Shown here piece after piece: positions 6,729 to 64,000 of a DNA stretch of 64,000 nt; position 1 is the stretch's first letter; the number at the start of each line of letters is the position of its first letter. The stretch comes from Candidatus Cryptobacteroides excrementipullorum (GTDB taxonomy: Bacteria; Bacteroidota; Bacteroidia; Bacteroidales; UBA932). Below the pieces are notes generated by a model. It was not told where the DNA came from. It saw only the letters and a list, made by a program, of their open reading frames with translations, and did no database searches. The stretch spans positions 1,135 to 65,134 of the forward strand of contig JADILZ010000041.1 of assembly GCA_017695065.1 (NCBI GenBank). Reading direction: 5' to 3'. Both the position numbers and the translations under genes were made by a program.

Positions 6729-6799
6729 GGTGCTATGGCCGAGTGGTTAGGCAATGGTCTGCAAAACCATGCACAGCAGTTCGATTCTGCTTGGCACCT
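6729..6799 (+). tRNA. tRNA-Cys (anticodon GCA)
   Basis: A 71-nt cloverleaf folded by hand. Acceptor GGTGCTA pairs with TGGCACC. The anticodon stem ATGGT/ACCAT carries loop CTGCAAA. The T-arm is GCAGTTCGATTCTGC. No CCA is encoded. Confidence 0.9.
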
Positions 6800-6978
6800 C
6801 GACTTATTGGTTATTAGTTTTAGTGTTATTAATTATGTGGTTAGTATGAGTGGTCCCCGCGGGAGCGGCGACGGCTCATTTTTTTTATATAGTACCATCT
6901 CTACTTTGGATATTTTTCTGTACTCACTGTCAGGGTTGTCGGAAGCGTGGTCATGTCTTGCGGGAGACCCGGCTCCAG

Positions 6979-46710: not shown

Positions 46711-46857
46711 ATGAAACAGATAGAGGTGGTAGCCGCCGTGATAAAGGACGGCAACAGGATTTTCGCGACACAGCGAGGATACGGTGAATTCAAGGATATG
46801 TGGGAATTCCCCGGCGGGAAAGTCCCACTTGAAAGTAAGAGCAAGTCGTTGAAATGA
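46711..46857 (+). pseudogene. 5' fragment of a Nudix (MutT-like) hydrolase gene, truncated after codon 38
   Basis: Translates MKQIEVVAAVIKDGNRIFATQRGYGEFKDMWEFPGGKV, then unrelated PLESKSKSLK*. The first 38 residues align with the N-terminus of the intact Nudix CDS at 59511-59903 (MKTIEVVAAIIRKDDKIFATQRGYGEWKDYWEAPGGKV). Confidence 0.7.
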
Positions 46858-52964: not shown

Positions 52965-52972
52965 TATATTTG
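52965..52972 (+). promoter_or_regulatory. Bacteroides-type -7 box (TATATTTG) upstream of the R-M operon
   Basis: Exact TAnnTTTG lies 43 nt upstream of the M1 ATG (53015). A T-rich but inexact -33 region sits about 20 nt upstream. Confidence 0.4.
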
Positions 52973-53014
52973 TTAGTTTTAACAGCAAATCAAGCACTTT
53001 CGGGAGATTTTTAT

Positions 53015-54148
53015 ATGAATGTAGTATCGCTATTCGCCAACATTGGTATAGGTGAGGCTTATTTGAAGAGCCTCGGCTTCGATGTTGTTGTGGCTAACGA
53101 ACTGGAGCCCAGACGGGTTGATATATATAGGCAGATCTATCCTAACACCAACATGATATGCGGGGACATCACTGACAAGAAAGTATATTCCAGCATTCGT
53201 AAAGCATGTGAGAAGCAAAAGATAGACGTTATAATGGCAACCCCTCCTTGCCAGGGAATGAGCACGGCAGGTAAACAAGACGAGTTCGACGTAAGGAATG
53301 AATTGTTTCTTTATGCCGTTCAACTGATAAAGGATGTCAAGCCCGATTATTTCATTTTTGAAAACGTTCCCGGGTTTATGACGACATACATCAAATACAA
53401 CGAAGAGAAACGTCTTATCCCCGATGTGATCAAAGAGTTGCTCAGGACAACCTATTCCATGTCTTTCAACATTATTGACACGCAGGATTATGGCGTTCCA
53501 CAGTCTCGTTCGAGAATGATTCTCTTAGGGACCAGACGGCGGGTCGCTCACAAATGGAATATGCCCGAATCCGAACCCGATGTCAAGACTCTCGAGGATG
53601 CTATCGGAGACCTTCCTATACTCGATCCCTTTGTTTACGATGTTTCGGAGGAAGAGATGCTCAAGGTCTTCCCCAACTACAAGAAAAGGGAAAAGGCCGC
53701 ACTGAAGATTTCACCCTGGCATGTACCGCCCCACCATATTCTTCGTCAAGTCATAACTATGCAGCACACGCCTACCGGCTGCTCAGCATTTGACAATGAA
53801 AAGTACAAGCCGAGGAAGAAAAACGGCGAGATAGTCAAGGGATTTCACAATACCTACTCGAGACAGAGGTGGGATGTCCCGGCCTACACTATCGCAATGA
53901 GCAACAACCAGATCTCCACGCAGAATAGTGTACACCCGGGTCGCTATCTCGGGAAAGACGCCAACGGCGACGACATCTACTCAGATCCTCGTGTCTTCAC
54001 GGTATATGAACTGATGCGGATAATGAGTATCCCGGACGATTGGCCCATCCCTACAACCGTGAGCAAGCAGTATTTAAGGCATATCATTGGCGAAGGCGTT
54101 CCTTCGCTCCTGATACGAAAGATATTTGAACAGATTCAAAATGGCTAA
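53015..54148 (+). CDS. DNA (cytosine-5)-methyltransferase, subunit M1 of an LlaJI-type R-M system
   Basis: Motif I LFANIGIGE, motif IV ATPPCQGMS, motif VI ENVPGF, motif VIII QSRSRMILLG, and the motif X region IGEGVPSLL. Confidence 0.9.
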   Translation: MNVVSLFANIGIGEAYLKSLGFDVVVANELEPRRVDIYRQIYPNTNMICGDITDKKVYSSIRKACEKQKIDVIMATPPCQGMSTAGKQDEFDVRNELFLYAVQLIKDVKPDYFIFENVPGFMTTYIKYNEEKRLIPDVIKELLRTTYSMSFNIIDTQDYGVPQSRSRMILLGTRRRVAHKWNMPESEPDVKTLEDAIGDLPILDPFVYDVSEEEMLKVFPNYKKREKAALKISPWHVPPHHILRQVITMQHTPTGCSAFDNEKYKPRKKNGEIVKGFHNTYSRQRWDVPAYTIAMSNNQISTQNSVHPGRYLGKDANGDDIYSDPRVFTVYELMRIMSIPDDWPIPTTVSKQYLRHIIGEGVPSLLIRKIFEQIQNG

Positions 54149-55286
54149 ACGAGCAAAACTTAGAGGACTCTCCCTGTTCGCCAATGTGGGCATTGCAGAA
54201 GCTTATCTGAAAGAAATTGGCGTCGATATGCTCGTGGCCAACGAACTTCTACCAGAACGTGCGCGGTTCTATCAGGACGTGTATCCAGAAACGCACATGG
54301 TCACTGGAGATATTACCGACGACAAGCTTCGCACGGCTATCGTCAACGAGGCAAAGAAGAAGAAAGTTAACTTCATCATGGCCACCCCTCCCTGTCAGGG
54401 AATGAGCCGTGTGGGCAAAATGGATAAGGACGATGTGCGCAACCAACTTATTTATTATGCGGTTGACGTAATTCTGCGGCTGAAACCGGAATTCGTGCTC
54501 ATTGAGAACGTCACGACGATTTTGACGACCAAGATCAAGGTTGACGGCAAAGAAATGCTTATTCCCGAATACCTGAAGGGTGTGCTGGGTGAAGATTACG
54601 TCTTCAATTCTCAATCAAAAGTCAGGGCGATGGATTATTCCATTCCGCAGATGCGTTTAAGGAATATCTATCTGCTTGTACGGAAGGACAAAAATATCAC
54701 TTGGGAATTCCCGGCAAGGACACCTATCGTCACCCTTGAAGACGCCATTGGGAATTTGCCAGACGTAGATCCCTATCTACGTGATGGCTATGATGTCACC
54801 CTGGCTCATTTCCCCGATTTCGAACGCAAGAAAGCTGCTGCTGCAGCCGTTTCGAAATGGCATAGGCCCCCTGTCCACTCATGGCGACTGGTCGAGTGGA
54901 TGATGCATACTCCGACCAATGATTCGGCTATTTTCAATCCAGTACACTATCCTCGCAAGACAGATGGGACCAGGGTATCCGCCCACTACAATCAATATCG
55001 CCGCTTGGCGTGGAATACACCTTGCCGTGCTTTGACCCAGAACAATGGAGTCATTTCTTCCCTTGCCTGCGTTCATCCAGGCAGGCCATATACCGTTAAT
55101 GGCGAGGTCTTATACACAAATCCCCGCGTCCTAACGATATACGAAGTTATGATTGTATCCTCTCTGCCTCTCGATTGGCCTATACCTGAATGGGCAAACG
55201 AGAATTTGATACGAAAGGTCATCGGTGAAGGCATTCCTTCAAGATTGATCAAAGTAATAGTTGAAGAACTCTTATCAAAAATATAG
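54141..55286 (+). CDS. DNA (cytosine-5)-methyltransferase, subunit M2 of an LlaJI-type R-M system
   Basis: LFANVGIAE, ATPPCQGMS, ENV, QMRLRNIYLL, IGEGIPSRL. It overlaps the M1 stop by 8 nt. Confidence 0.9.
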   Translation: MAKRAKLRGLSLFANVGIAEAYLKEIGVDMLVANELLPERARFYQDVYPETHMVTGDITDDKLRTAIVNEAKKKKVNFIMATPPCQGMSRVGKMDKDDVRNQLIYYAVDVILRLKPEFVLIENVTTILTTKIKVDGKEMLIPEYLKGVLGEDYVFNSQSKVRAMDYSIPQMRLRNIYLLVRKDKNITWEFPARTPIVTLEDAIGNLPDVDPYLRDGYDVTLAHFPDFERKKAAAAAVSKWHRPPVHSWRLVEWMMHTPTNDSAIFNPVHYPRKTDGTRVSAHYNQYRRLAWNTPCRALTQNNGVISSLACVHPGRPYTVNGEVLYTNPRVLTIYEVMIVSSLPLDWPIPEWANENLIRKVIGEGIPSRLIKVIVEELLSKI

Positions 55287-55288
55287 TT

Positions 55289-57148
55289 ATGGGAAGTCTT
55301 ATCATGCCTAAGCATACAGGGCTCGTATCCGAGTTTCAAACTCCTCTGAAAGTATGCTACGATAGAAAGGACGTCAACAACGGCTGGGTGGAAAATGGTC
55401 ACGCCAAGCAAGGTATAGATGGTTTTACATTGTATTTATACCAGGAGTATCATGCGGCCAATGCTCTGGGGCACAGTACCCCCAAGAACGATAATTCCGA
55501 TTATACGAAGGATGCTCAGCTTCCTTTGTATTTCGGTTTTATGGAAATCTCTGAAACCCGTTCCAAAGCCCTGCGTAGAATCACTCCAAGCGGAATTGAA
55601 ATGTATGAGGCCCTCGTTGCCAATGACAAGGACAAGATATACTCTTTGTTTATCAACGCCTTGGAAAGTATGACTTTCGGGCGGAACAATAGTGGCTGCG
55701 AGAATTCGGATTCCGATCTGGAGGCCCCGAATATTCTATTGATTAGTTCGGTGATTCTTGGAGGCATCAAGAGGAAGGAATACTATTACATCCTCGAATT
55801 CATGGACGAGAATGGATGTGACCTTTCCAACGCGCTGTCTAAAGTGGCGTATTACAGAAAGAAACAAGAAGACATTCCCGATACGGCTGTGACATATACT
55901 GACGCCAAATTCATTCCCTTCTGGGTGTCTTTAGGCTTCCTTACGGACGCATCCGATGGAAGGCTGCACATCTCATCCGATGTCTTTAATCGCTATGCAG
56001 CGCGAATAATGCGCTTGCGTATCAAGAATACAGAGACACCCAAGAAGCGAAAGATTTACAGCCCCGATGGGACGATGCAGAAGATTTATTACGGTTGTCC
56101 CGGAACCGGAAAGTCCTTCAAGATCAAGGAAGAAATTGAAGGAGTTGACGGTGAACTCGCTGTATATTTTGACGACAAGGGAAAGAAAATCGACACGCCC
56201 GATACGAAAGAGGAGCGGATCGGCAAGCCGAGCAATATATTCCGTACCACCTTCCATCCAGACTATGATTATGCTACATTTGTAGGCTCATATAAGCCCG
56301 TCATGGAAGTGGTCAAGGAGAAGACTGAAAACCAAAAGGAGGAAAAAGAACTGGGCTATTCTTTTGTTCCACAGGTATTTACAAAAGCTTATATTCGAGC
56401 CTATAACTCAAAGAAGGACAAAACTTTATCGAGTGACGAAAAGAATGTGTACCTAATTATTGAAGAAATCAATCGTGGTAATTGTGCGCAGATTTTCGGA
56501 GACCTTTTCCAGTTGCTTGACCGCAAAGGTGGTGTTTCAGAATTCCCGGTCGTCCCTGATACAGAGCTAATCAATTATCTGAATAAGGAAGGCATTCCGG
56601 GTAATACAATTAGATTGCCTGAGAACCTTCATATTCTGGCCACAATGAATACCTCTGACCAGAGTTTGTTCCCAATGGATTCAGCTTTCAAGAGGCGCTG
56701 GTCGATGGAGTACATTCCGATTAACCTCCAGCAAGAGATTGCCCAAAAATACACTTTCAGAGTTAAAGGAAAGGAGTATTCATGGGTCAAATTCCTCGAA
56801 AAAGTCAACCCCCTCATTCGCAAGGCTACGGACAGCGAGGATAAGCAGATGGGCGAATTCTTCATCAAAGGCGACATTTCCGAGGAAGATTTCAAGAACA
56901 AGGTAATGTTCTACCTCTGGAATGACGTGTGCAAGGATCTCTACTCCGCCAGTCGCATTTCTCCGTTATACTTTATGCGCAGCGACGATGCCGAAGGGAA
57001 TAAGAACGTTTTCACTTTTGCCGAGCTTTACGGGAAAGGACGTTACGAGGATGACACCAAAGATTACACAGCCCCTGTTGATTTGCTTGAGGGTTTCATC
57101 ACCAAGAAACTGGGCCTTACCCACTTACCCGCTCAGAACCAGGAATAA
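55289..57148 (+). CDS. McrB-family AAA+ NTPase (LlaJI R1-like restriction subunit)
   Basis: YYGCPGTGKSF Walker A, LIIEEINRGNCAQIFGDLFQLLDR, and ILATMNTSDQSL...DSAFKRRW, the McrB/GTPase signature blocks. The ~270-aa N-terminal domain was not recognised. Confidence 0.85.
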   Translation: MGSLIMPKHTGLVSEFQTPLKVCYDRKDVNNGWVENGHAKQGIDGFTLYLYQEYHAANALGHSTPKNDNSDYTKDAQLPLYFGFMEISETRSKALRRITPSGIEMYEALVANDKDKIYSLFINALESMTFGRNNSGCENSDSDLEAPNILLISSVILGGIKRKEYYYILEFMDENGCDLSNALSKVAYYRKKQEDIPDTAVTYTDAKFIPFWVSLGFLTDASDGRLHISSDVFNRYAARIMRLRIKNTETPKKRKIYSPDGTMQKIYYGCPGTGKSFKIKEEIEGVDGELAVYFDDKGKKIDTPDTKEERIGKPSNIFRTTFHPDYDYATFVGSYKPVMEVVKEKTENQKEEKELGYSFVPQVFTKAYIRAYNSKKDKTLSSDEKNVYLIIEEINRGNCAQIFGDLFQLLDRKGGVSEFPVVPDTELINYLNKEGIPGNTIRLPENLHILATMNTSDQSLFPMDSAFKRRWSMEYIPINLQQEIAQKYTFRVKGKEYSWVKFLEKVNPLIRKATDSEDKQMGEFFIKGDISEEDFKNKVMFYLWNDVCKDLYSASRISPLYFMRSDDAEGNKNVFTFAELYGKGRYEDDTKDYTAPVDLLEGFITKKLGLTHLPAQNQE

Positions 57149-57160
57149 TATATAAGCCCG

Positions 57161-58933
57161 ATGCTCGTCTATTTCGAAGGATACTATTACCCTGACAAAT
57201 CGGTCTTCGACAAGATCAAAGTTGAAGATCCCGATAAATATGTTGTGCCGGTTCAGCGCGATAGAAAAGGGTGGTATGTAGAGCATATCGGTTATTTGTT
57301 TGTATCCATGGAGGGCGGTGGAGAACCGGTCTTCATTCTTCCCAAAAACTTCTTAAAGAACGATACGGCCCATCCTGAGGAGGGTCTGACGTTGCTTGGT
57401 ATGCCCGGAGTCAAGCCGGAAAAAGTATTCGATTCAGACCCAGAAAAGAATATTCTTTCACAGCGCGGCCAGGAAACCTTTTTGCCAGAATTAAGTCTTT
57501 GGCTCTTCCGCGCAATGTCTCGATACCGTGAAGAGCGGGAAAAGGAGAAAACGGAGATTCAGAAAGATGAGCTGTACTACCGCGCCCCAGATCACGGGGC
57601 ATATGACCGTGATTTTCTAAGTACAGCCATTCATCTTATTGACTTCCTCTCCGACCATCGAAACCTATTCACGCAGATTAGCAAGATAAACAACTCGGGC
57701 CGTGCCGCGGTTGACTGGTCTAAAACCATTCAGCAACATCCGTTCATCAAGGGTGGCAAACCGTATTATCTTGATCTCCGCATCAAGGACAAAGCCATCA
57801 ACATCGATGAGGAGCTTATTGTCCTTTACTACTCTGTTCTCAGATACCTCAAGGAGAAGTTCCATTTCCGTATCAACTACGGTGAGATCAATTACCCGCT
57901 TAAAACCCGCTCGGAGATTCAGAACTATCTGGATACGGGCGTAGGCAAGCGCCGGATGCGCGACATGAAGGGGAAATACTTCCGAGATGACCTTTTGGAG
58001 TTATGGGCTCTTTTGGACGCGTTTTTCGATTGCAACATCAGCCGAGACGACAAAGATCCCATAAAAGAGTGCCTTGTAACCAAGCAATTCCACAAGGTCT
58101 TCGAAAGGATGGTTGATGCTCTCATTAGCAACTCTGACAAACTTGAGCGCTTGAAGAACCAGAAGGACGGGAAACTGGTTGACCATCTTTTCCTTTACAA
58201 ATCCCTCGTTGGTTCGAAGCACACCATCTACTACATCGGTGACAGCAAATACTATCCTGACGCCAACCATGCAGAAGATGTCGCTCTTTACAAGCAGTTC
58301 ACTTATGCCCGTAATGCTATCCAGTACAATATAGATCAGTATTATATCCATCACAAGAAGAATCCTGACGCCATCCGCTACCGAGACAAGGATACGGAAG
58401 GGTATAACGTCACGCCCAACTTCTTCATCTGCCCGAAGATAGAAGCAGGCAACCTCGATTTTACGCAGCATTCTTTTGCTGCCGCATCATGGGAATACGA
58501 GCCTAACAGACATTTTGAAGATCGTCTGTTTGATCGTGACACACTCCTGCTAAGAGAGTATGAAATCAACCTCATTTTTCTTATTGCAGCTTACGGCGCT
58601 TATGAAGACTGCTGGACTGACAGTCTCCACAAAACCATTCGGGAAGACATGATCGATTTCCTTAACGAGACCTATAATTTCTTCAAGATAGAGCCGATGG
58701 ATTATCCTGTCTCCTCCCAAAATGGCCTGATAGACAAATGGCCGTTCACCAAAGTATTTCGCCGCACTCTTGAAGGAAAGGCCTACAAAGAGGACGAGGA
58801 CTCTAAGGACATCATCCTCGCCTTTGAAAAGAAAACCGAAACGGGTAAAAAAGACTACAAATTCGTCCACGATGAAATCAAGGACTATGTCATTGGCGGC
58901 AGTATTGATGATCCTATACCCCTGAAGCCGTGA
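57161..58933 (+). CDS. LlaJI-family / McrC-like restriction endonuclease subunit (R2)
   Basis: It follows the McrB-like gene in M1-M2-R1-R2 order. It has a PD-(D/E)xK-like YYIGDSKYY motif, as in McrC/LlaJI R2. The family assignment rests on context plus this motif. Confidence 0.7.
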   Translation: MLVYFEGYYYPDKSVFDKIKVEDPDKYVVPVQRDRKGWYVEHIGYLFVSMEGGGEPVFILPKNFLKNDTAHPEEGLTLLGMPGVKPEKVFDSDPEKNILSQRGQETFLPELSLWLFRAMSRYREEREKEKTEIQKDELYYRAPDHGAYDRDFLSTAIHLIDFLSDHRNLFTQISKINNSGRAAVDWSKTIQQHPFIKGGKPYYLDLRIKDKAINIDEELIVLYYSVLRYLKEKFHFRINYGEINYPLKTRSEIQNYLDTGVGKRRMRDMKGKYFRDDLLELWALLDAFFDCNISRDDKDPIKECLVTKQFHKVFERMVDALISNSDKLERLKNQKDGKLVDHLFLYKSLVGSKHTIYYIGDSKYYPDANHAEDVALYKQFTYARNAIQYNIDQYYIHHKKNPDAIRYRDKDTEGYNVTPNFFICPKIEAGNLDFTQHSFAAASWEYEPNRHFEDRLFDRDTLLLREYEINLIFLIAAYGAYEDCWTDSLHKTIREDMIDFLNETYNFFKIEPMDYPVSSQNGLIDKWPFTKVFRRTLEGKAYKEDEDSKDIILAFEKKTETGKKDYKFVHDEIKDYVIGGSIDDPIPLKP

Positions 58934-59514
58934 GCGCGGTCTCTCCACAGCGGTCATTCATCATGTCACAAGTTCACTCCAAGAACACGACTCCGGAGAA
59001 GATTGTGAGGGCCGAGTTGTGGCACAGAGGTTACCGGTATCGGCTCAATGACAAGCGCCTGCCCGGCAGGCCCGACCTCGTGCTGCCCAAGTACCGCGCT
59101 GTCATCTTCATCAACGGCTGCTTCTGGCACGGCCATAAAGGCTGCTCTAAGTTTACCGTTCCCAAGACAAACGAAGAATTCTGGCGCGAGAAGGTTGCCC
59201 AGAACATCGCCCGCGACGAAATCAATGCTCAGCGCCTCGATACACTTTCCTGGACAGTCATCACCGTCTGGGAGTGCGAACTGTCGAAGAAGAACCGCGA
59301 TGCCACCATTGCCCGCATAGAGTCCGATTTACGGGCCGCAAAGGCCAAATACGACAAATGGACCGCCCTCCGCCGCGAGAGCCGTGAATACGCCCGAGAA
59401 CAGGCCAGAAAGCATCGTGAAATCCTCGCCCAGGTCGAAGCAGAACTGAATCTGCCAAAAAGCCTCCGCCGCTACGCAAAGAAAGCCGAACAGATTACAG
59501 AAGAATCCTTATGA
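58930..59514 (+). CDS. vsr: very short patch repair endonuclease Vsr with a ~45-aa charged C-terminal extension
   Basis: RSFIMSQVHSKNTTPEKIVRAELWHRGYRYRLN...LPGRPDLVLPKYRAVIFINGCFWHGH...WECE. The GTG start overlaps the R2 stop (GTGA). Confidence 0.9.
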   Translation: MSAVSPQRSFIMSQVHSKNTTPEKIVRAELWHRGYRYRLNDKRLPGRPDLVLPKYRAVIFINGCFWHGHKGCSKFTVPKTNEEFWREKVAQNIARDEINAQRLDTLSWTVITVWECELSKKNRDATIARIESDLRAAKAKYDKWTALRRESREYAREQARKHREILAQVEAELNLPKSLRRYAKKAEQITEESL

Positions 59515-59903
59515 AGACGATAGAAGTAGTTGCAGCCATCATCCGCAAGGATGACAAGATATTCGCCACCCAGCGGGGCTACGGTGAATGGAAAGACTAT
59601 TGGGAGGCCCCAGGTGGTAAGGTCGAGCCGGGCGAAAGCCCCATCCAGGCACTCCGGCGCGAGATACGAGAGGAACTGGACACTGAAATCAGTGTCGATA
59701 AATTCCTTACGACAATTGAATGGGACTATCCTAAGTTTCACCTCACGATGCACTGCTATATGTGCTCCCTGCTGAATGACGCACTGCATCTGAATGAGCA
59801 CGAGGCCGCCCGCTGGCTGGGAGTTGATGACCTTCGCAGTGTCAATTGGCTCCCAGCCGACGACCAGCTTCTTCCTCTTATTGAGAGGGAGCTTTCGATT
59901 TAG
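59511..59903 (+). CDS. Nudix hydrolase (MutT-like (deoxy)nucleoside triphosphate pyrophosphohydrolase)
   Basis: Nudix box GGKVEPGESPIQALRREIREELD. The ATG overlaps the vsr stop (ATGA). Confidence 0.85.
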   Translation: MKTIEVVAAIIRKDDKIFATQRGYGEWKDYWEAPGGKVEPGESPIQALRREIREELDTEISVDKFLTTIEWDYPKFHLTMHCYMCSLLNDALHLNEHEAARWLGVDDLRSVNWLPADDQLLPLIERELSI

Positions 59904-60534
59904 TGTCCACTACGACATATCCGCCAGCCGAGTCAAACTCTACCCATCGACCTTTGCCCAATTTTATGCGGGCGATTCTGTGTTCCTCTTTGGGGATTAC
60001 GATTTCATCGTCAGTCAGGCCGATATACTTAAGTAGGTCCTGAACTGTTGCCGGCCCCCCTTTTTGATGCTGCAGCTCATACTTGCAGTGCCTGAGTTTG
60101 TCGCTGGCCAGCTGGTCGCGAAGTGTAGTAGCACGAAGGCGCCATCCGGTGACCATCTCGTAGCCCTTCTTGCCACATTTGCATTCATACTCCAGATCCA
60201 CACGGCCACTAAGCGGAGAGCCAACATACCGGTAAGGGAAAATGGCTTTTTCGCACTTCGGACAAGTTACCTGGAATAATTCCGGATACTCCATGTTACA
60301 ACGTATGAATGACCCAAGCCAAACTGGATCAGGAGCCATCTCAATCGCTTTTCCGGCGATGCAATAAACCATCTCCGGGTACAGGGGGATGAAGTAGAAA
60401 CGGTCGATGTCCTTCCATTCATCGAAGCTGGCGTAAATCACGCCGGCGTTGCGGTAGAACACTTTGGTGTGGAGCATCTGCTCCTTGGTAGGACGAGGTC
60501 CGCCCTGCCTGAAGAAATTGTACTTGTCTTGCAT
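59878..60534 (-). CDS. hypothetical protein with an internal Cys4 zinc-ribbon-like motif (218 aa)
   Basis: CPKCEK...x23...CKCGKKG. The start was trimmed to MQDKYNFF (60534) within the 59878-60873 ORF. It converges on the Nudix gene and overlaps its end by 26 nt. Confidence 0.45.
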   Translation of the reverse strand: MQDKYNFFRQGGPRPTKEQMLHTKVFYRNAGVIYASFDEWKDIDRFYFIPLYPEMVYCIAGKAIEMAPDPVWLGSFIRCNMEYPELFQVTCPKCEKAIFPYRYVGSPLSGRVDLEYECKCGKKGYEMVTGWRLRATTLRDQLASDKLRHCKYELQHQKGGPATVQDLLKYIGLTDDEIVIPKEEHRIARIKLGKGRWVEFDSAGGYVVVDTKSKAPSQ

Positions 60535-60690
60535 GATACAGACTTTTTTTGATTGAACATCCGCATCGTTTTGCCACCGTGGCAGTCTGGCTCGCTCGGT
60601 TGGCGCTCCTCTGGGGAGACTCTTGATGCACGATGCAAAAGTAAGTAGAATTTCGTAAATTTGCAATCTAACACCAAAACACATAATAAC

Positions 60691-60900
60691 ATGGCAACAA
60701 TCTATACAGTAATATGCCCCAAGTGTGGCCACAAGTTTGAGGTCACTAAAGGTATCCTGATGAGCGAAGCGAATCTTGACCCCGTCCCTGAAGAACGCAA
60801 AGAGGAAACTCCGTTCAAGTGCCCTGTATGCGGTCTTGAGATGTCGACGCAGGACGAGGACTTCAACCAGCACTGCGAGTCGGTGATAATGGCTGACTGA
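60691..60900 (+). CDS. small zinc-ribbon protein (69 aa)
   Basis: CPKCGHKF...x32...CPVCGLEM, two CxxC pairs. A TAAATTTG -7 box lies at 60656-60663. Confidence 0.55.
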   Translation: MATIYTVICPKCGHKFEVTKGILMSEANLDPVPEERKEETPFKCPVCGLEMSTQDEDFNQHCESVIMAD

Positions 60901-60903
60901 CCG

Positions 60904-61608
60904 ATGGCCATGCAGAACGTCTATACCGAAGAAGAACTGTACTGGAGCCGCGGAGGCAACACCGGTACTCTTCCTGAACGTATAACTCCGTCACAGGTCA
61001 ATGTCCTGGCCGATGGGGAAATCTTCGTCTTTGGCAGCAATTTTCAGGGCCGACATATGGGCGGCGCTGCACGCGTTGCTCAGGAGAAATACGGAGCCGT
61101 CTGGGGTATAGGAGAAGGCCTGCAGGGCCAATCCTACGCCATACCGACGATGGAAGGCCTGGAGAATCTCGCTCCGGCCGTCCAGCGCTTCACCTCCTTC
61201 GCCCGGCAGCACAAAGAATTGAAGTTCTTCGTCACCGCCATCGGCTGCGGCATTGCCGGCTATCAGCCCGAAGAGATTGCGCCTATGTTCCTGAATGCGG
61301 CCTATCTGCCGAATGTCTTCCTGCCGCTGTCCTTCTGGAAGATCATCATGCATATCCCCGGCGCAGAGGAAAGTGTCCGGTCCTTCGCCCAGTCCGTCTT
61401 GGATGTCTGCCGATACGCCCACCGCAACAATCCGCCCACCTGGACCACCGCCACCGACGAAGCCCTCTTCAACGGCCTTGAGCGCGACCAGCACTGGCAG
61501 CTCGGCATCCTCCTGGGAATCATTTCGCCGGCTGATGAAGAGCCGCAGACGAAGGAACTGCCGGCAGAACTCAAGCAGAAGATCCTTGACGCATTGAAGA
61601 AGGCCTGA
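60904..61608 (+). CDS. A1S_2505-like phage-associated protein with a ~100-aa C-terminal extension
   Basis: IFVFGSNFQGRHMGGAARVA...GLQGQSYAIPT...FFVTAIGCGIAGY matches my recollection of the A1S_2505 family of phage non-structural proteins (GSNxxGxHGxGAA / SYAIPT / TxIGCGLAG). Confidence 0.55.
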   Translation: MAMQNVYTEEELYWSRGGNTGTLPERITPSQVNVLADGEIFVFGSNFQGRHMGGAARVAQEKYGAVWGIGEGLQGQSYAIPTMEGLENLAPAVQRFTSFARQHKELKFFVTAIGCGIAGYQPEEIAPMFLNAAYLPNVFLPLSFWKIIMHIPGAEESVRSFAQSVLDVCRYAHRNNPPTWTTATDEALFNGLERDQHWQLGILLGIISPADEEPQTKELPAELKQKILDALKKA

Positions 61609-61676
61609 CAATTTACGTCAGATGCAAAAAGAAACGACATTTGTAATACAAGATAACCCCCAAAACAGATATAGCC

Positions 61677-61964
61677 ATGATGGATTTACGCGACTACACG
61701 GCCATCTATAAGGATGCTGATAGACAAATCCTTGTAAACAAGTCTGAGTTTAACTATAGCCTCGTTGCTAAGGATGGAGATGCTTTTACCGAGATTCTTG
61801 TTTCAGCCGAGGAAATTGATAATTCGATGACGTTCCCTGAGGCCGAAAAAATGTCCTGGAAGAAGCAGTTCGAACTCTTGTTTGGCAATAAGAATGGTTT
61901 CGATGGCCTCATCAAGTATTGTGACGAGAACGAGATCTCAACACAGATTCTGAACTGGGACTAA
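61677..61964 (+). CDS. hypothetical protein (95 aa)
   Basis: ORF only. It lies on the same strand within the cluster and has lower GC than its neighbours. Confidence 0.4.
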   Translation: MMDLRDYTAIYKDADRQILVNKSEFNYSLVAKDGDAFTEILVSAEEIDNSMTFPEAEKMSWKKQFELLFGNKNGFDGLIKYCDENEISTQILNWD

Positions 61965-61997
61965 TCTGGACGTCCATAGTTGCATGATTAAAAACAC

Positions 61998-62705
61998 ATG
62001 AACATGAAAAAGGTCTTACAATACACCCTCCTGCTGGTCATCGCCATTGTTTCGCTTTCTGCCTGTAAATCAAATGAGCAGAAAGCAGCAGCATTAATCA
62101 AGGATTACATGTTCAAGAATCTCTTTGATTATGAGAGTTATGAGCCAATAGAGACATCTATAGATAGCGCTTATAACCAGCCTATGATGAATAGTCAGAT
62201 TCTTGCTCTTGCCTTTGATTCGGTAGAGAAAGAGAAAGAAGCAGAAGAGCATCATGAAGAATATGAAGACGCATCTCGTACTAGGGATATTTGGAGCGGC
62301 GGTTGGTCCTCATACAGCACAAAGGAATATAATAAAGCTCGTAAGAAAGCAATAGAAGAGCTCATTGCCTCGATTGAGGGCACTAGGGCATCTGTCAGAA
62401 ACTTGAAGCAGATCAAATCTATGGCCGATACGCTTTCATCAGGATTTATCGGATGGTCTGCCATCCATAGTTTCAGGTGTAATACGCAGGGTGGTAATAA
62501 AACTATCGGGAACTATCTCTTCATCTTCGATAAAAGTTTCAAAACCATCCTCAATGTATTTGATGCCAATGACGAAGAACTGGTTGCAGCTATAGATAAA
62601 ATCGGGACAGCCCAGGCTATGACCGACGAACAGTTTATGGAGCTGGAAGAGCAGTTTACTGGCCAGATTACCCAACTGCAAGACGGGTTAGCCAAAATAA
62701 AATAG
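61998..62705 (+). CDS. hypothetical lipoprotein (235 aa)
   Basis: Signal peptide plus lipobox (LLLVIAIVSLSAC). The remainder was not recognised. Confidence 0.6.
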   Translation: MNMKKVLQYTLLLVIAIVSLSACKSNEQKAAALIKDYMFKNLFDYESYEPIETSIDSAYNQPMMNSQILALAFDSVEKEKEAEEHHEEYEDASRTRDIWSGGWSSYSTKEYNKARKKAIEELIASIEGTRASVRNLKQIKSMADTLSSGFIGWSAIHSFRCNTQGGNKTIGNYLFIFDKSFKTILNVFDANDEELVAAIDKIGTAQAMTDEQFMELEEQFTGQITQLQDGLAKIK

Positions 62706-62787
62706 TCATTAACGTTCTGGTCTGAGCCTGGGAATAGCAGTTCTTCGGGTCAAGACCATAATAGGGAAAACAGTTTGATGCTAAAAG

Positions 62788-63324
62788 ATGGAGATTGGGC
62801 TTAATCATATACATAGAACCTATGGTTTCCCGCCACTGTTGTGCGATGAACCAAGAATCTTGATTCTGGGCACACTGCCTGGTGGGGAATCACTGGAGCA
62901 TCGGCAATACTACTATTCCAATTCCAACCGGATTTGGAAGGTGTTGTGCCACATTAAAGGAGAGCCGATGCCGATAGCCTATGCCCAGAAACAGGCCCTG
63001 CTTGCGAAGTATCACATCGTCCTCTGGGACTACTACGAATCCGCTATCCGGCCAGATAGCAGCAATGACAAAGACATCCGGGACGGTCATCCCAACGATA
63101 TACCAGCCTTCCTTGCCGCTCATCCTACCATCAAGACCATTGGCATCAACGGATTTGGGAAGTACAAAGACTTCGGCCGCAAGATTGCGAGAGAGCTGGC
63201 GCAAATACCGGCCCTTGCCGATGTCCGTGTACTCCGGCTTCCGGAAACCAGTGGAAGCAACAAGAACTACGGCTGGGGATATGTAGAAAACCTTGCCCGG
63301 GAATGGGCACATATCTTTGACTGA
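62788..63324 (+). CDS. UDG-superfamily DNA glycosylase (family-6 / hypoxanthine-DNA-glycosylase-like)
   Basis: ILILGTLPGGESL...QYYYSNSNRIWKVL matches the GxxPGxxS...YYxxxxNxFW pattern of DNA-deoxyinosine (hypoxanthine) glycosylases. ETSGSN lies near the C-terminus. Confidence 0.65.
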   Translation: MEIGLNHIHRTYGFPPLLCDEPRILILGTLPGGESLEHRQYYYSNSNRIWKVLCHIKGEPMPIAYAQKQALLAKYHIVLWDYYESAIRPDSSNDKDIRDGHPNDIPAFLAAHPTIKTIGINGFGKYKDFGRKIARELAQIPALADVRVLRLPETSGSNKNYGWGYVENLAREWAHIFD

Positions 63325-63329
63325 CGCTT

Positions 63330-63689
63330 ATGTACGAGAATGAATCAGCTGCTGTCCGTGCGGGAATAGACTTTCTGCAGGCTCTGACCGAGAAAGATTA
63401 CCTCCTCGATCCCACCTTCGATGTCCTGGATCTGGAGCAGAAGCTGATTGAGATTCAGGCCGATGTCAACTTCCTCATCTCCAACCTGCCAGTTGAGGCC
63501 ATTGACGATGACCAGGAGAGGGAGGAAGAGTATCCCGGCGATTTCGAAGACGGCGAAGAACTGGAGGACGAAGTGGTGGAATGCGAGAAGCTGATTGCTC
63601 AAGCTACGGGGCTCCTGGCCGCAGTCCGCGAGCATTATCTGCCAAGTCCATCAATCCAGCCGTTGTGGTTTGATGTAGAAATAGAATGA
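63330..63689 (+). CDS. hypothetical, strongly acidic protein (119 aa)
   Basis: By hand count, about 33 Asp/Glu versus about 6 Lys/Arg. It starts 5 nt after the glycosylase stop. Its last 9 codons and stop lie inside the first CRISPR repeat. Confidence 0.45.
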   Translation: MYENESAAVRAGIDFLQALTEKDYLLDPTFDVLDLEQKLIEIQADVNFLISNLPVEAIDDDQEREEEYPGDFEDGEELEDEVVECEKLIAQATGLLAAVREHYLPSPSIQPLWFDVEIE

Positions 63690-63879
63690 ATTACAACGAA
63701 GCCGCAGCCGTGGCACTGAACAAAGCAGTCGTGGTTTGATGTAGAAATAGAATGAATTACAACTGCAGGATAGACACCCCAGTCCGCTCTACAGTTGTGG
63801 TTTGATGTAGAAATAGAATGAGTAATAACGCAGATGTACTGTACATACAGCATCATCGTGTTGTGATTTGATGTAGAAA
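63662..63879 (+). CRISPR. CRISPR mini-array: three full 36-nt repeats plus one decayed terminal repeat, with three 30-nt spacers
   Basis: Repeats lie at 63662-63697, 63728-63763 (1 mismatch), 63794-63829 (3 mismatches) and 63860-63879 (first 20 nt only, 1 mismatch). The consensus is GTTGTGGTTTGATGTAGAAATAGAATGAATTACAAC. The spacers are exactly 30 nt and unrelated to one another. Confidence 0.85.
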
Positions 63880-64000
63880 AGCCATATGTGTCCGGTAAAA
63901 ATCCGGACTAGTTATTATAAAGTATAACAATTAAAATAAAGTAGGTTCGGTAGAACCATCCGGTTCATTGACAATATTGCAGTTAGGTTTACAGAACAGT

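Follow-up and report, generated by a model that had tools for sequence, protein, structure and literature searches.

Known riboswitches for S-adenosylmethionine (SAM) almost always control genes for the biosynthesis, salvage, or transport of methionine, cysteine, or SAM itself. Among them, the SAM-I/IV class (RF01725) belongs to the variant SAM-I and SAM-IV RNAs described by Weinberg et al. 2010 (PMC2864571), and in SAM-IV the loop of helix P3 pairs with the 3' end of the RNA, after the last hairpin, to form PK-2 (PMC6890682). Structured leaders are also found ahead of defence genes, as in the case of the abiF motif (RF03085), which lies upstream of AbiF in C. difficile (bioRxiv 10.1101/2025.04.15.648962). 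Here, we describe a stretch of 64,000 nucleotides from Candidatus Cryptobacteroides excrementipullorum (contig JADILZ010000041.1), hereafter the window, in which a predicted SAM-I/IV aptamer precedes g1, a gene for a small Zn-ribbon protein located next to a restriction-modification (R-M) cassette. All positions are those of the window; g1 to g7 are the seven open reading frames (ORFs) at 59878-63689, and labels of the type L0nn designate the loci fetched for comparison. The informative feature of this locus is the non-coding RNA in the 156-nt gap between g1 and g2, and not the uncharacterised genes that lie between the two defence loci.

An Rfam scan of the window returned a single regulatory RNA, a match to the RF01725 covariance model at 60535-60634 on the minus strand, which scored 57.5 bits where the gathering score is 41.1 (E 5e-8) and spans the full length of the model (positions 1-99 of 99). 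The aptamer proper ends within 19 nt of the AUG of g1 (59878-60534, minus strand, 218 aa), and its 3' tail abuts the start codon at 60534. The same RNA is present immediately 5' of every full-length g1 homologue for which upstream DNA is available, that is, in 23 other loci (L006-L009, L011-L022, L024, L025, L028, L037, L057, L059, and L061). The proteins behind the riboswitch in these loci are 35-78% identical to g1, the lowest values being 35-41%. Together with the window, riboswitch and g1 are coupled without exception in 24 loci. L010 was left out of this count because it has only 73 nt of upstream DNA, and no RF01725 match was found at the fragmentary g1 matches of L023, L026, and L027.

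The g1 leader resembles the described SAM-I/IV regulons in that it matches the full model, stands as a same-strand 5' leader before a start codon, and contains covarying helices. The difference lies in the gene behind it, as g1 is no recognisable enzyme or transporter of methionine, cysteine, or SAM, but a member of an accessory Zn-ribbon family often found in defence islands. We assign the leader at 60535-60634 to the SAM-I/IV riboswitch aptamers, with SAM as its predicted ligand. Such an RNA names the signal before the role of the protein is known, which makes the orphan g1 family unusually tractable.

In an alignment of 18 g1 leaders, compensatory double changes are observed in four of the 23 predicted pairs, in P2 and at the base of P3, and the linker CAAAAAAAGTCTGTATCATG is nearly invariant. 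Most of these 18 loci also show a TAnnTTTG-like box, the -7 promoter consensus of Bacteroidetes, at the same alignment position. In the window, this box is TACTTTTG (60636-60643, minus strand, identified by motif search), and it is probably placed such that the transcript begins at P1. The motif search yielded a second promoter-like box, TAAATTTG, on the opposite strand (60656-60663, plus strand), 27 nt upstream of the start codon of g2. Since both boxes and the aptamer lie inside the 156-nt intergenic gap, we interpret this gap as a divergent promoter pair with a riboswitch. A scan for sigma-70-type promoters and for terminators gave no signals above shuffled expectation.

A possible pairing within the leader bears on the sign of the regulation. 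Between the P3 loop (CAGAN) and the linker (NUCUG), 16 of the 18 loci could form a short helix of 4-5 bp, whose fifth pair varies between C:G, U:A, and A:U. The topology of this PK-2-like pairing matches that of PK-2 in SAM-IV (PMC6890682). With transcription starting at the TAnnTTTG box, a PK-2-type pairing would tie the P3 loop to nucleotides around -12 to -8 of g1, and bound SAM would occlude the translation start, such that the g1 protein would be made mainly at low SAM. Because the PK-2-like pairing falls some 8-12 nt before the AUG and no terminator was detected, we infer that the riboswitch is a translational one, for which SAM would be the OFF signal.

The predicted folding of the leader in its ligand-free form weighs against this direction. 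In 12 of the 18 loci, the minimum-energy fold pairs the 3' strand of P1 and the 5' strand of P4 with the 9 nt preceding the AUG. In the window, this alternative helix (60552-60600, minus strand) is formed by GAUGCGGAU and GUCUGUAUC, the latter abutting the AUG, and it competes with the aptamer. Such a helix would predict the opposite sign, a SAM-ON switch.

Concerning the protein itself, g1 contains seven Cys residues, four of which are invariant in the homologue alignment as CPxC...CxC, along with the invariant motifs APDPVWLGSF and GSPLSGRV.LE. It also carries a C-terminal extension of 47 aa, which is present in few of the aligned homologues. From these features, g1 is predicted to be a small Zn-ribbon protein of a family without prior description or known fold. 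The family comprises at least 425 homologue clusters, usually ~171 aa in length and typically 55-78% identical, among which we found neither a Pfam family nor a functional name. The g1 sequence has no match in Pfam, NCBIfam, PHROG, or PADLOC and no sequence or fold match in the Protein Data Bank (PDB); a cytochrome c match obtained in the PDB profile search was spurious. The Pfam search on the longest distant matches was uninformative, giving no domain fusion clue. A profile search of 1.8 billion representative proteins with g1 retrieved only 105 clusters at 50% identity. In many loci, the gene 3' of g1 lies on the opposite strand, which makes g1 a single-gene unit.

The genomic neighbours of g1 vary from locus to locus, but defence genes are conspicuously frequent among them. 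The arrangement g1/NUDIX/R2/R1, where R1 and R2 are the restriction genes of a LlaJI-like cassette, is found in the window and in L007, L009, and L013, with vsr also present in all but L013. In L016, g1 has an HpaII endonuclease, Vsr, and Abi_2 as neighbours; in L018, Abi_2 and a 1415-aa PDC-S37/Hhe protein (E=0); in L006, an AAA_15 ATPase and an HKD+Snf2 protein (1e-123); and in L059 and L060, AbiEii and a SNF2 helicase. In L028-L036, g1 lies between two gene pairs, ArdC with a gene resembling single-stranded DNA-binding protein, and a 1454-aa type IIG enzyme with GmrSD. L061 encodes a 660-aa N6-methyltransferase (N6_Mtase/Eco57I) near g1, and between the two a 323-aa protein whose VVECKS motif suggests a PD-ExK nuclease.

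A further protein of 348-366 aa, which belongs to no family and is 63% identical among its three occurrences, was noticed upstream of the riboswitch-g1 unit in L007 (4700-5767), L013 (4764-5810), and L037 (5687-6787). It is adjacent to this unit in L007 and L013, while L037, which is without an R-M cassette, has an Endonuclease_NS gene between this protein and g1.

These neighbourhoods raise the question of whether defence islands read the SAM level, as a means of avoiding self-restriction or of detecting SAM depletion by a phage. The reading that we prefer, though only tentatively, is that g1 ties the SAM level to nearby methylation-dependent defence modules. In this case, g1 could act as a safeguard once methylation lags behind restriction or, alternatively, could respond to SAM depletion. 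Several observations weigh against such a link. The defence neighbours are a plain tally by locus, and several g1 loci have ordinary neighbours (a major facilitator superfamily transporter, an acyltransferase, leucine-rich repeat proteins). In one lineage (L057, L058, and probably L010), g1 stands upstream of a gene for a 496-aa homocysteine S-methyltransferase, an arrangement in keeping with plain methionine metabolism; no second riboswitch was found before this gene in L057. No member of the g1 family was found in the phage, plasmid, or IMG/VR collections. The structure gives little direction either, as the AlphaFold2 model of g1 is weak (predicted local distance difference test score, pLDDT, of 64), Foldseek against the PDB gave no hit with E below 0.1, and the one part of the model with a likeness is its zinc ribbon, which resembles that of NrdR.

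Some of these observations lend weight to the alternative that g1 is an ordinary member of a SAM/methionine regulon, with a role in supply, sparing, or salvage, and that its proximity to defence genes is incidental, arising from shared variable regions. This alternative accords with the near-constant association of known SAM riboswitches with methionine, cysteine, and SAM genes, with the homocysteine S-methyltransferase lineage, with the non-defence neighbours, and with the absence of the family from the phage and plasmid collections. Nevertheless, g1 is small, soluble, and unlike any known enzyme or transporter, and its metabolic neighbour is confined to one lineage, whereas defence or R-M neighbours occur in ~10 independent loci. 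Furthermore, with carriers among only 22 of 185,579 species-representative genomes, g1 does not belong to core metabolism; nearly all of these carriers are metagenome-assembled genomes of rumen or gut Bacteroidales. We regard this incidental-proximity alternative as a serious one, though we would not give it an even chance, and a plain role in SAM/methionine homeostasis appears about as likely as the defence link. As a homeostasis factor, g1 would still be a new SAM-regulon member in abundant rumen bacteria.

A more specific version of the defence link would make g1 a guard-type effector, in which a phage SAM lyase lowers SAM, the riboswitch opens, and g1 arrests the cell or blocks the phage. 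Phage SAM lyase is an anti-R-M and anti-BREX strategy, g1 resides in defence islands, and the SAM-OFF switch predicted through PK-2 would have the required direction. PrrC and PARIS are guards of anti-restriction that sense a phage protein directly. By analogy, g1 would be, like them, a second-line element beside R-M that responds once the first line is disabled, but its proposed signal is a metabolite read by RNA and not a phage protein. The abiF motif offers a precedent for cis-RNA control of an Abi toxin through a structured 5' leader of a defence-island gene (bioRxiv 10.1101/2025.04.15.648962). Nevertheless, no metabolite ligand is known for the abiF leader, which acts through premature termination and also as an antitoxin, whereas the g1 leader belongs to a validated metabolite-sensing class; moreover, AbiF is a toxin, while no toxicity is known for g1, which has no toxin-like domain. 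A guard of this type would also be triggered by ordinary methionine starvation and would need fresh host translation during infection. Its direction of switching, moreover, is brought into doubt by the alternative folds in 12 of the 18 loci, and its support comes from sequence and context. We consider a guard function of g1 distinctly unlikely.

Stated more widely, the methylation-defence islands of rumen Bacteroidales would carry an RNA sensor of SAM that gates g1, either halting self-restriction at low SAM or guarding against phage SAM lyase. We consider this wider proposal doubtful, but if true, it would represent the first riboswitch-controlled component of restriction or defence; our literature search found no paper joining a SAM riboswitch and restriction-modification.

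The remaining six ORFs have to be considered next to the g1-riboswitch pair, since an earlier note on this DNA had proposed all seven genes as a candidate for a new defence, anti-defence, or superinfection-exclusion function. The layout that it gave is correct: one divergent gene and six co-directional plus-strand genes are present at the coordinates listed there, their gene calls are repeated in independent metagenome assemblies, and they lie between an R-M/vsr cassette on the left and a clustered regularly interspaced short palindromic repeat (CRISPR) array on the right, although the array is only a remnant without cas genes or leader. Its naming of an A1S_2505-like protein (g3), a lipoprotein (g5), and a glycosylase of the uracil-DNA glycosylase (UDG) superfamily (g6) was borne out by NF049995, a lipobox, and TIGR04274, respectively. 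The riboswitch, the NUDIX gene, the truncation of g7, the end of g7 encoded by a CRISPR repeat, and the missing leader and cas genes were absent from its description.

The view of the seven genes as one block draws on their tight spacing (inter-gene gaps of 3, 68, 33, 82, and 5 nt from g2 to g7), with six co-directional genes behind one promoter-like box, on the defence-rich variable island in which they lie, and on the phage-associated domain of g3 and the PHROG match of the lipoprotein g5. Against this view, a tblastn search with the seven proteins in 74 fetched loci found the block nowhere outside contigs of the same strain. Only partial sets occur elsewhere: g5-g6-g7 without g1-g4 in L073 and L074, g6-g7 in a core chromosomal context in L068-L072, and g1 with a g3-like gene in L016. 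Homologues of g3 that are 90% and 77% identical lie among entirely different genes. In PADLOC-DB v2, none of g1-g7 has a match, the only hits being two at chance level (E 0.004 and 0.003), while g6 is a repair glycosylase and g7 is truncated. It is very improbable that these genes form one new defence, anti-defence, or exclusion block, and we regard a single seven-gene system as essentially excluded. What stands of the proposal is its setting, as the DNA is variable and rich in defence genes, and g1 recurs beside defence genes; the seven genes themselves are not a unit. The genes do not co-occur in other genomes, but the contexts in which g1 and g3 recur are mostly those of defence genes or mobile elements, and not non-defence ones.

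The locus is a mosaic, and its best explanation as a whole, which we consider probable, is that at least three pieces with separate histories have been joined near the right-hand side of a variable island: the riboswitch-led g1, g2-g4, and a g5-g7 trio cut at the CRISPR junction. The comparison with L073 delimits these pieces. By blastn, positions 1-255 of L073 correspond to 59639-59893 of the window (85%) and positions 930-2604 to 61987-63661 (97%), and between them L073 holds 675 nt of other DNA in place of 59894-61986. This variable segment of 2.09 kb contains the 3' end of the NUDIX gene, g1, the riboswitch, g2, g3, and g4. In L073 and L074, which represent a close relative, the NUDIX gene is directly followed by g5 (96%), g6 (97%), and a full-length g7 (99%), with g1-g4 missing. 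The GC content across the seven genes ranges from 0.42 (g4 and g5) to 0.58 (g3). While the g1-riboswitch pair is the part worth keeping, g2-g7 appear to be filler of an ordinary or undetermined kind.

The first of these genes, g2 (60691-60900, plus strand, 69 aa), is a double-CxxC zinc ribbon with two CxxC pairs, sub-threshold matches to zinc-ribbon families in Pfam and NCBIfam, and weak matches (E 9e-3) to hypothetical genes of Bacteroides phages. The acidic 95-aa protein encoded by g4 (61677-61964, plus strand) has no family in Pfam, NCBIfam, PHROG, or PADLOC and no match in the phage collection. Outside contigs of the same strain, neither g2 nor g4 was encountered again in a search that covered the fetched loci, family libraries, and phage collection but no protein search of a large database. 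The TAAATTTG box is likely a promoter for g2 through g6, and no further TAnnTTTG occurs on the plus strand from g2 to 63312. We conclude that g2-g4 are strain-specific small genes, which probably form one operon with g5 and g6.

A better-defined family is seen for g3 (60904-61608, plus strand, 234 aa), which matches the A1S_2505_Nterm family NF049995 at 2e-41 (140.6 bits, the cut-off being 45) and phrog_2072 at 2e-34. The phage-associated domain is N-terminal (approximately residues 38-150) and is followed by a helical C-terminal extension. It is matched by 471 phage records, those listed being hypothetical or without annotation, and g3 as a whole has 3687 homologues. Two sets of close homologues were found. 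The first has a DpnII R-M system and a GIY-YIG gene in its vicinity, while BREX, a PIF1-type helicase, RNase_T, and an HNH gene surround the second. A literature search gave nothing on the function of A1S_2505. A macro-domain fold was considered for g3 but is not supported, as there was no Pfam match, an hhalign probability of 0.18, and a Foldseek E above 0.3 on a model whose pLDDT is below 50 in the domain.

The third piece starts with g5 (61998-62705, plus strand, 235 aa), a lipoprotein with a signal peptide and an LSAC lipobox, which matches phrog_21933 at 7e-8 and one faecal phage contig at 28% identity. In L073 and L074, g5 is 95-96% identical and has the same neighbours. The next gene, g6 (62788-63324, plus strand, 178 aa), matches the DNA-deoxyinosine glycosylase model TIGR04274 at 3.9e-30 (104.9 bits against an equivalog cut-off of 80) and PDB 2l3f at 4.9e-16. 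We are confident in its predicted assignment as a hypoxanthine-DNA glycosylase of the family-6 UDG type, a repair enzyme. Within this family (TIGR04274; PDB 2l3f), g6 is an ordinary member, its sole extra feature being a conserved pairing with g7, as g6 and g7 occur at a constant 5-nt spacing in L068-L074. In L068-L072, from a more distant relative, the pair is preceded by a 384-aa protein with a g3-like domain and a 241-aa protein, g6 being 79% identical and g7 full-length (96%). It is followed there by PAD_porph, MntP, Nudix, and FAD-oxidase genes, which constitute a chromosomal context. A further promoter-like box, TATCTTTG, was noticed at 63312-63319, inside the end of g6 and just before g7.

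The last gene of the trio, g7 (63330-63689, plus strand, 119 aa, isoelectric point 4.05), encodes a truncated form of a tail-anchored acidic protein for which no family was found in Pfam, NCBIfam, PHROG, or PADLOC. Its 268 homologues are 150-161 aa long (normally ~153) and cover 89-93% of the query. At full length, their acidic N-terminal domain is followed by a Pro/Ala/Thr-rich linker, then by a KKKR patch, and finally by a transmembrane helix at the C-terminus. The match to the intact g7 allele stops at 63661 and the first CRISPR repeat starts at 63662. The g7 of the window is a truncated gene, because the homology ends exactly where the repeat begins, and its last nine codons (111-119) and its stop codon are supplied by the repeat.

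Phage-related matches in g2-g7 bring in another explanation, that these genes are leftovers of a prophage or conjugative element acting singly in anti-defence or exclusion, with g3 as a macro-like protein processing ADP-ribose and g5 as an exclusion lipoprotein. Consistent with this idea, the g3 domain is found in 471 phage genomes, macro domains recur among the weak Foldseek matches of g3, the homologues of g3 have HNH, GIY-YIG, RNase_T, and PIF1-helicase genes as neighbours, and g5 matches both PHROG and a faecal phage contig. Nevertheless, the macro-domain profile test failed, as described above, the IMG/VR viral contigs contained nothing close to g3, g5, or g7, the g5-g7 genes are kept with chromosomal neighbours, and no phage structural or replication genes are present. 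We therefore consider such leftovers unlikely as an explanation of g2-g7, and return to the mosaic, in which the trio is cut by the array.

The CRISPR array (63662-63882, plus strand) consists of three full 36-nt repeats, three 30-nt spacers, and one degenerate terminal repeat at the far end. The same repeat is found in L075 (269-6145) in a complete type II-C locus, with a cas9 of 1214 aa (RuvC_III, HNH_4, Cas9_a), cas1, cas2, a 128-nt leader, and at least 13 repeats, which can serve as a reference for arrays of this type. We assign the array of the window to type II-C on the strength of this repeat identity, since the L075 copies stand behind cas9-cas1-cas2 and a leader. A Cas13b (type VI-B) array had been suggested by the 36/30-nt geometry and the GTTG...CAAC repeat ends, and was ruled out by the same identity. 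Compared with type II-C CRISPR-Cas9 loci, the window array shares the repeat, but it lacks cas genes and leader, has three fixed spacers, and has its first repeat fused to the coding sequence of g7. Indeed, no cas9, cas1, or cas2 was detected in the 64-kb window by tblastn, the DNA upstream of the first repeat is g7 coding sequence and not a leader, and the same spacers occur in contigs from different samples, as far as each contig extends. Together with the degenerate far-end repeat, these features identify the array as what is left of the distal part of a type II-C array, which a rearrangement has joined to g7. No exact protospacer was found in IMG/VR for any of the three spacers.

Beyond the array, L053 diverges directly after the degenerate repeat, and two different sequences follow this repeat among the samples (63883-64000). 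Three contigs of the window's form extend to this point (L001/L048, L052), and all of them end at one base, about 23 nt past the end of the window, which suggests an insertion, a repeat element, or a structural variant near 63957-64000. A lone copy of the CRISPR repeat was also observed in L077 (480-515, minus strand), with no array, followed by hairpin and T-run sequences.

On the other side of g1, the LlaJI-like R-M cassette with Vsr (52970-59514, plus strand) comprises, in the order read from the sequence, two C5-methyltransferases, a 619-aa AAA_5 (McrB-like) R1, a putative R2 of 590 aa, Vsr, and then the NUDIX gene. Both methyltransferases match PF00145, with further matches to MTase_II (2.4e-152) and REase_II (2.9e-66), R1 matches AAA_5 at 1.1e-5, and Vsr matches TIGR00632 at 2.7e-39. 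No match was found for R2 in Pfam, NCBIfam, or PADLOC, the sequence of LlaJI.R2 itself being outside the comparison. The likeness to LlaJI-type systems lies in the order M1-M2-R1(AAA+)-R2, and g1/NUDIX/R2/R1 recurs in four loci, three of them with vsr. Nevertheless, g1 is part of no described LlaJI system and also occurs without the cassette, beside other types of defence.

The NUDIX gene (59511-59903, plus strand, MutT-like) is convergent with g1, whose 3' end it overlaps by 26 nt, and overlaps the end of vsr by 4 nt (ATGA), to which it is predicted to be translationally coupled (58930-59903). Its product matches PF00293 at 8.7e-20 and the PADLOC candidate PDC-S07 at 9e-47. It travels with the LlaJI-like cassette in L007, L009, and L013, in the first two together with vsr, and the NUDIX proteins of L073 and L007 are fused to an additional C-terminal domain of ~95 to 185 aa. 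A plausible role of such a protein is the clearing of 5-methyl-dCTP or damaged dNTPs.

A second NUDIX sequence marks the left boundary of the island. L044, a related strain from another sample, shares 98% identity with the window as far as 46820, a point within a NUDIX gene of which the window keeps only a 5' remnant of ~41 codons (46711-46835, plus strand). Beyond this breakpoint, L044 has an intact NUDIX gene, a GajB-like UvrD helicase, and a PLD nuclease, whereas the window continues with a tyrosine integrase (from 46973), HTH_17, BT4734_N, and PriCT_2+DUF3987 replication genes, and the R-M cassette. An element that inserted into the NUDIX gene and rebuilt it at 59511-59903 was considered, but it is ruled out by the identity between that gene and the chromosomal NUDIX of L044, which is only 67% at the nucleotide and 62% at the amino acid level over the whole length. 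Therefore, the NUDIX gene at 59511-59903 is the island's own, and only the 5' remnant at 46711-46820 is chromosomal. We conclude that, from 46.8 kb onwards, the window is variable island DNA throughout, and that the right end of the island lies outside the window. When the stretches 46.1-47.05 kb and 59.4-64 kb were compared for shared direct repeats (att sites), only chance 11-12-mers emerged. With a NUDIX remnant in the window and a different island in L044, the site looks like a hot spot for islands. Unrelated to the island, the sole tRNA gene of the window, a tRNA-Cys (GCA), is located at 6729-6800.

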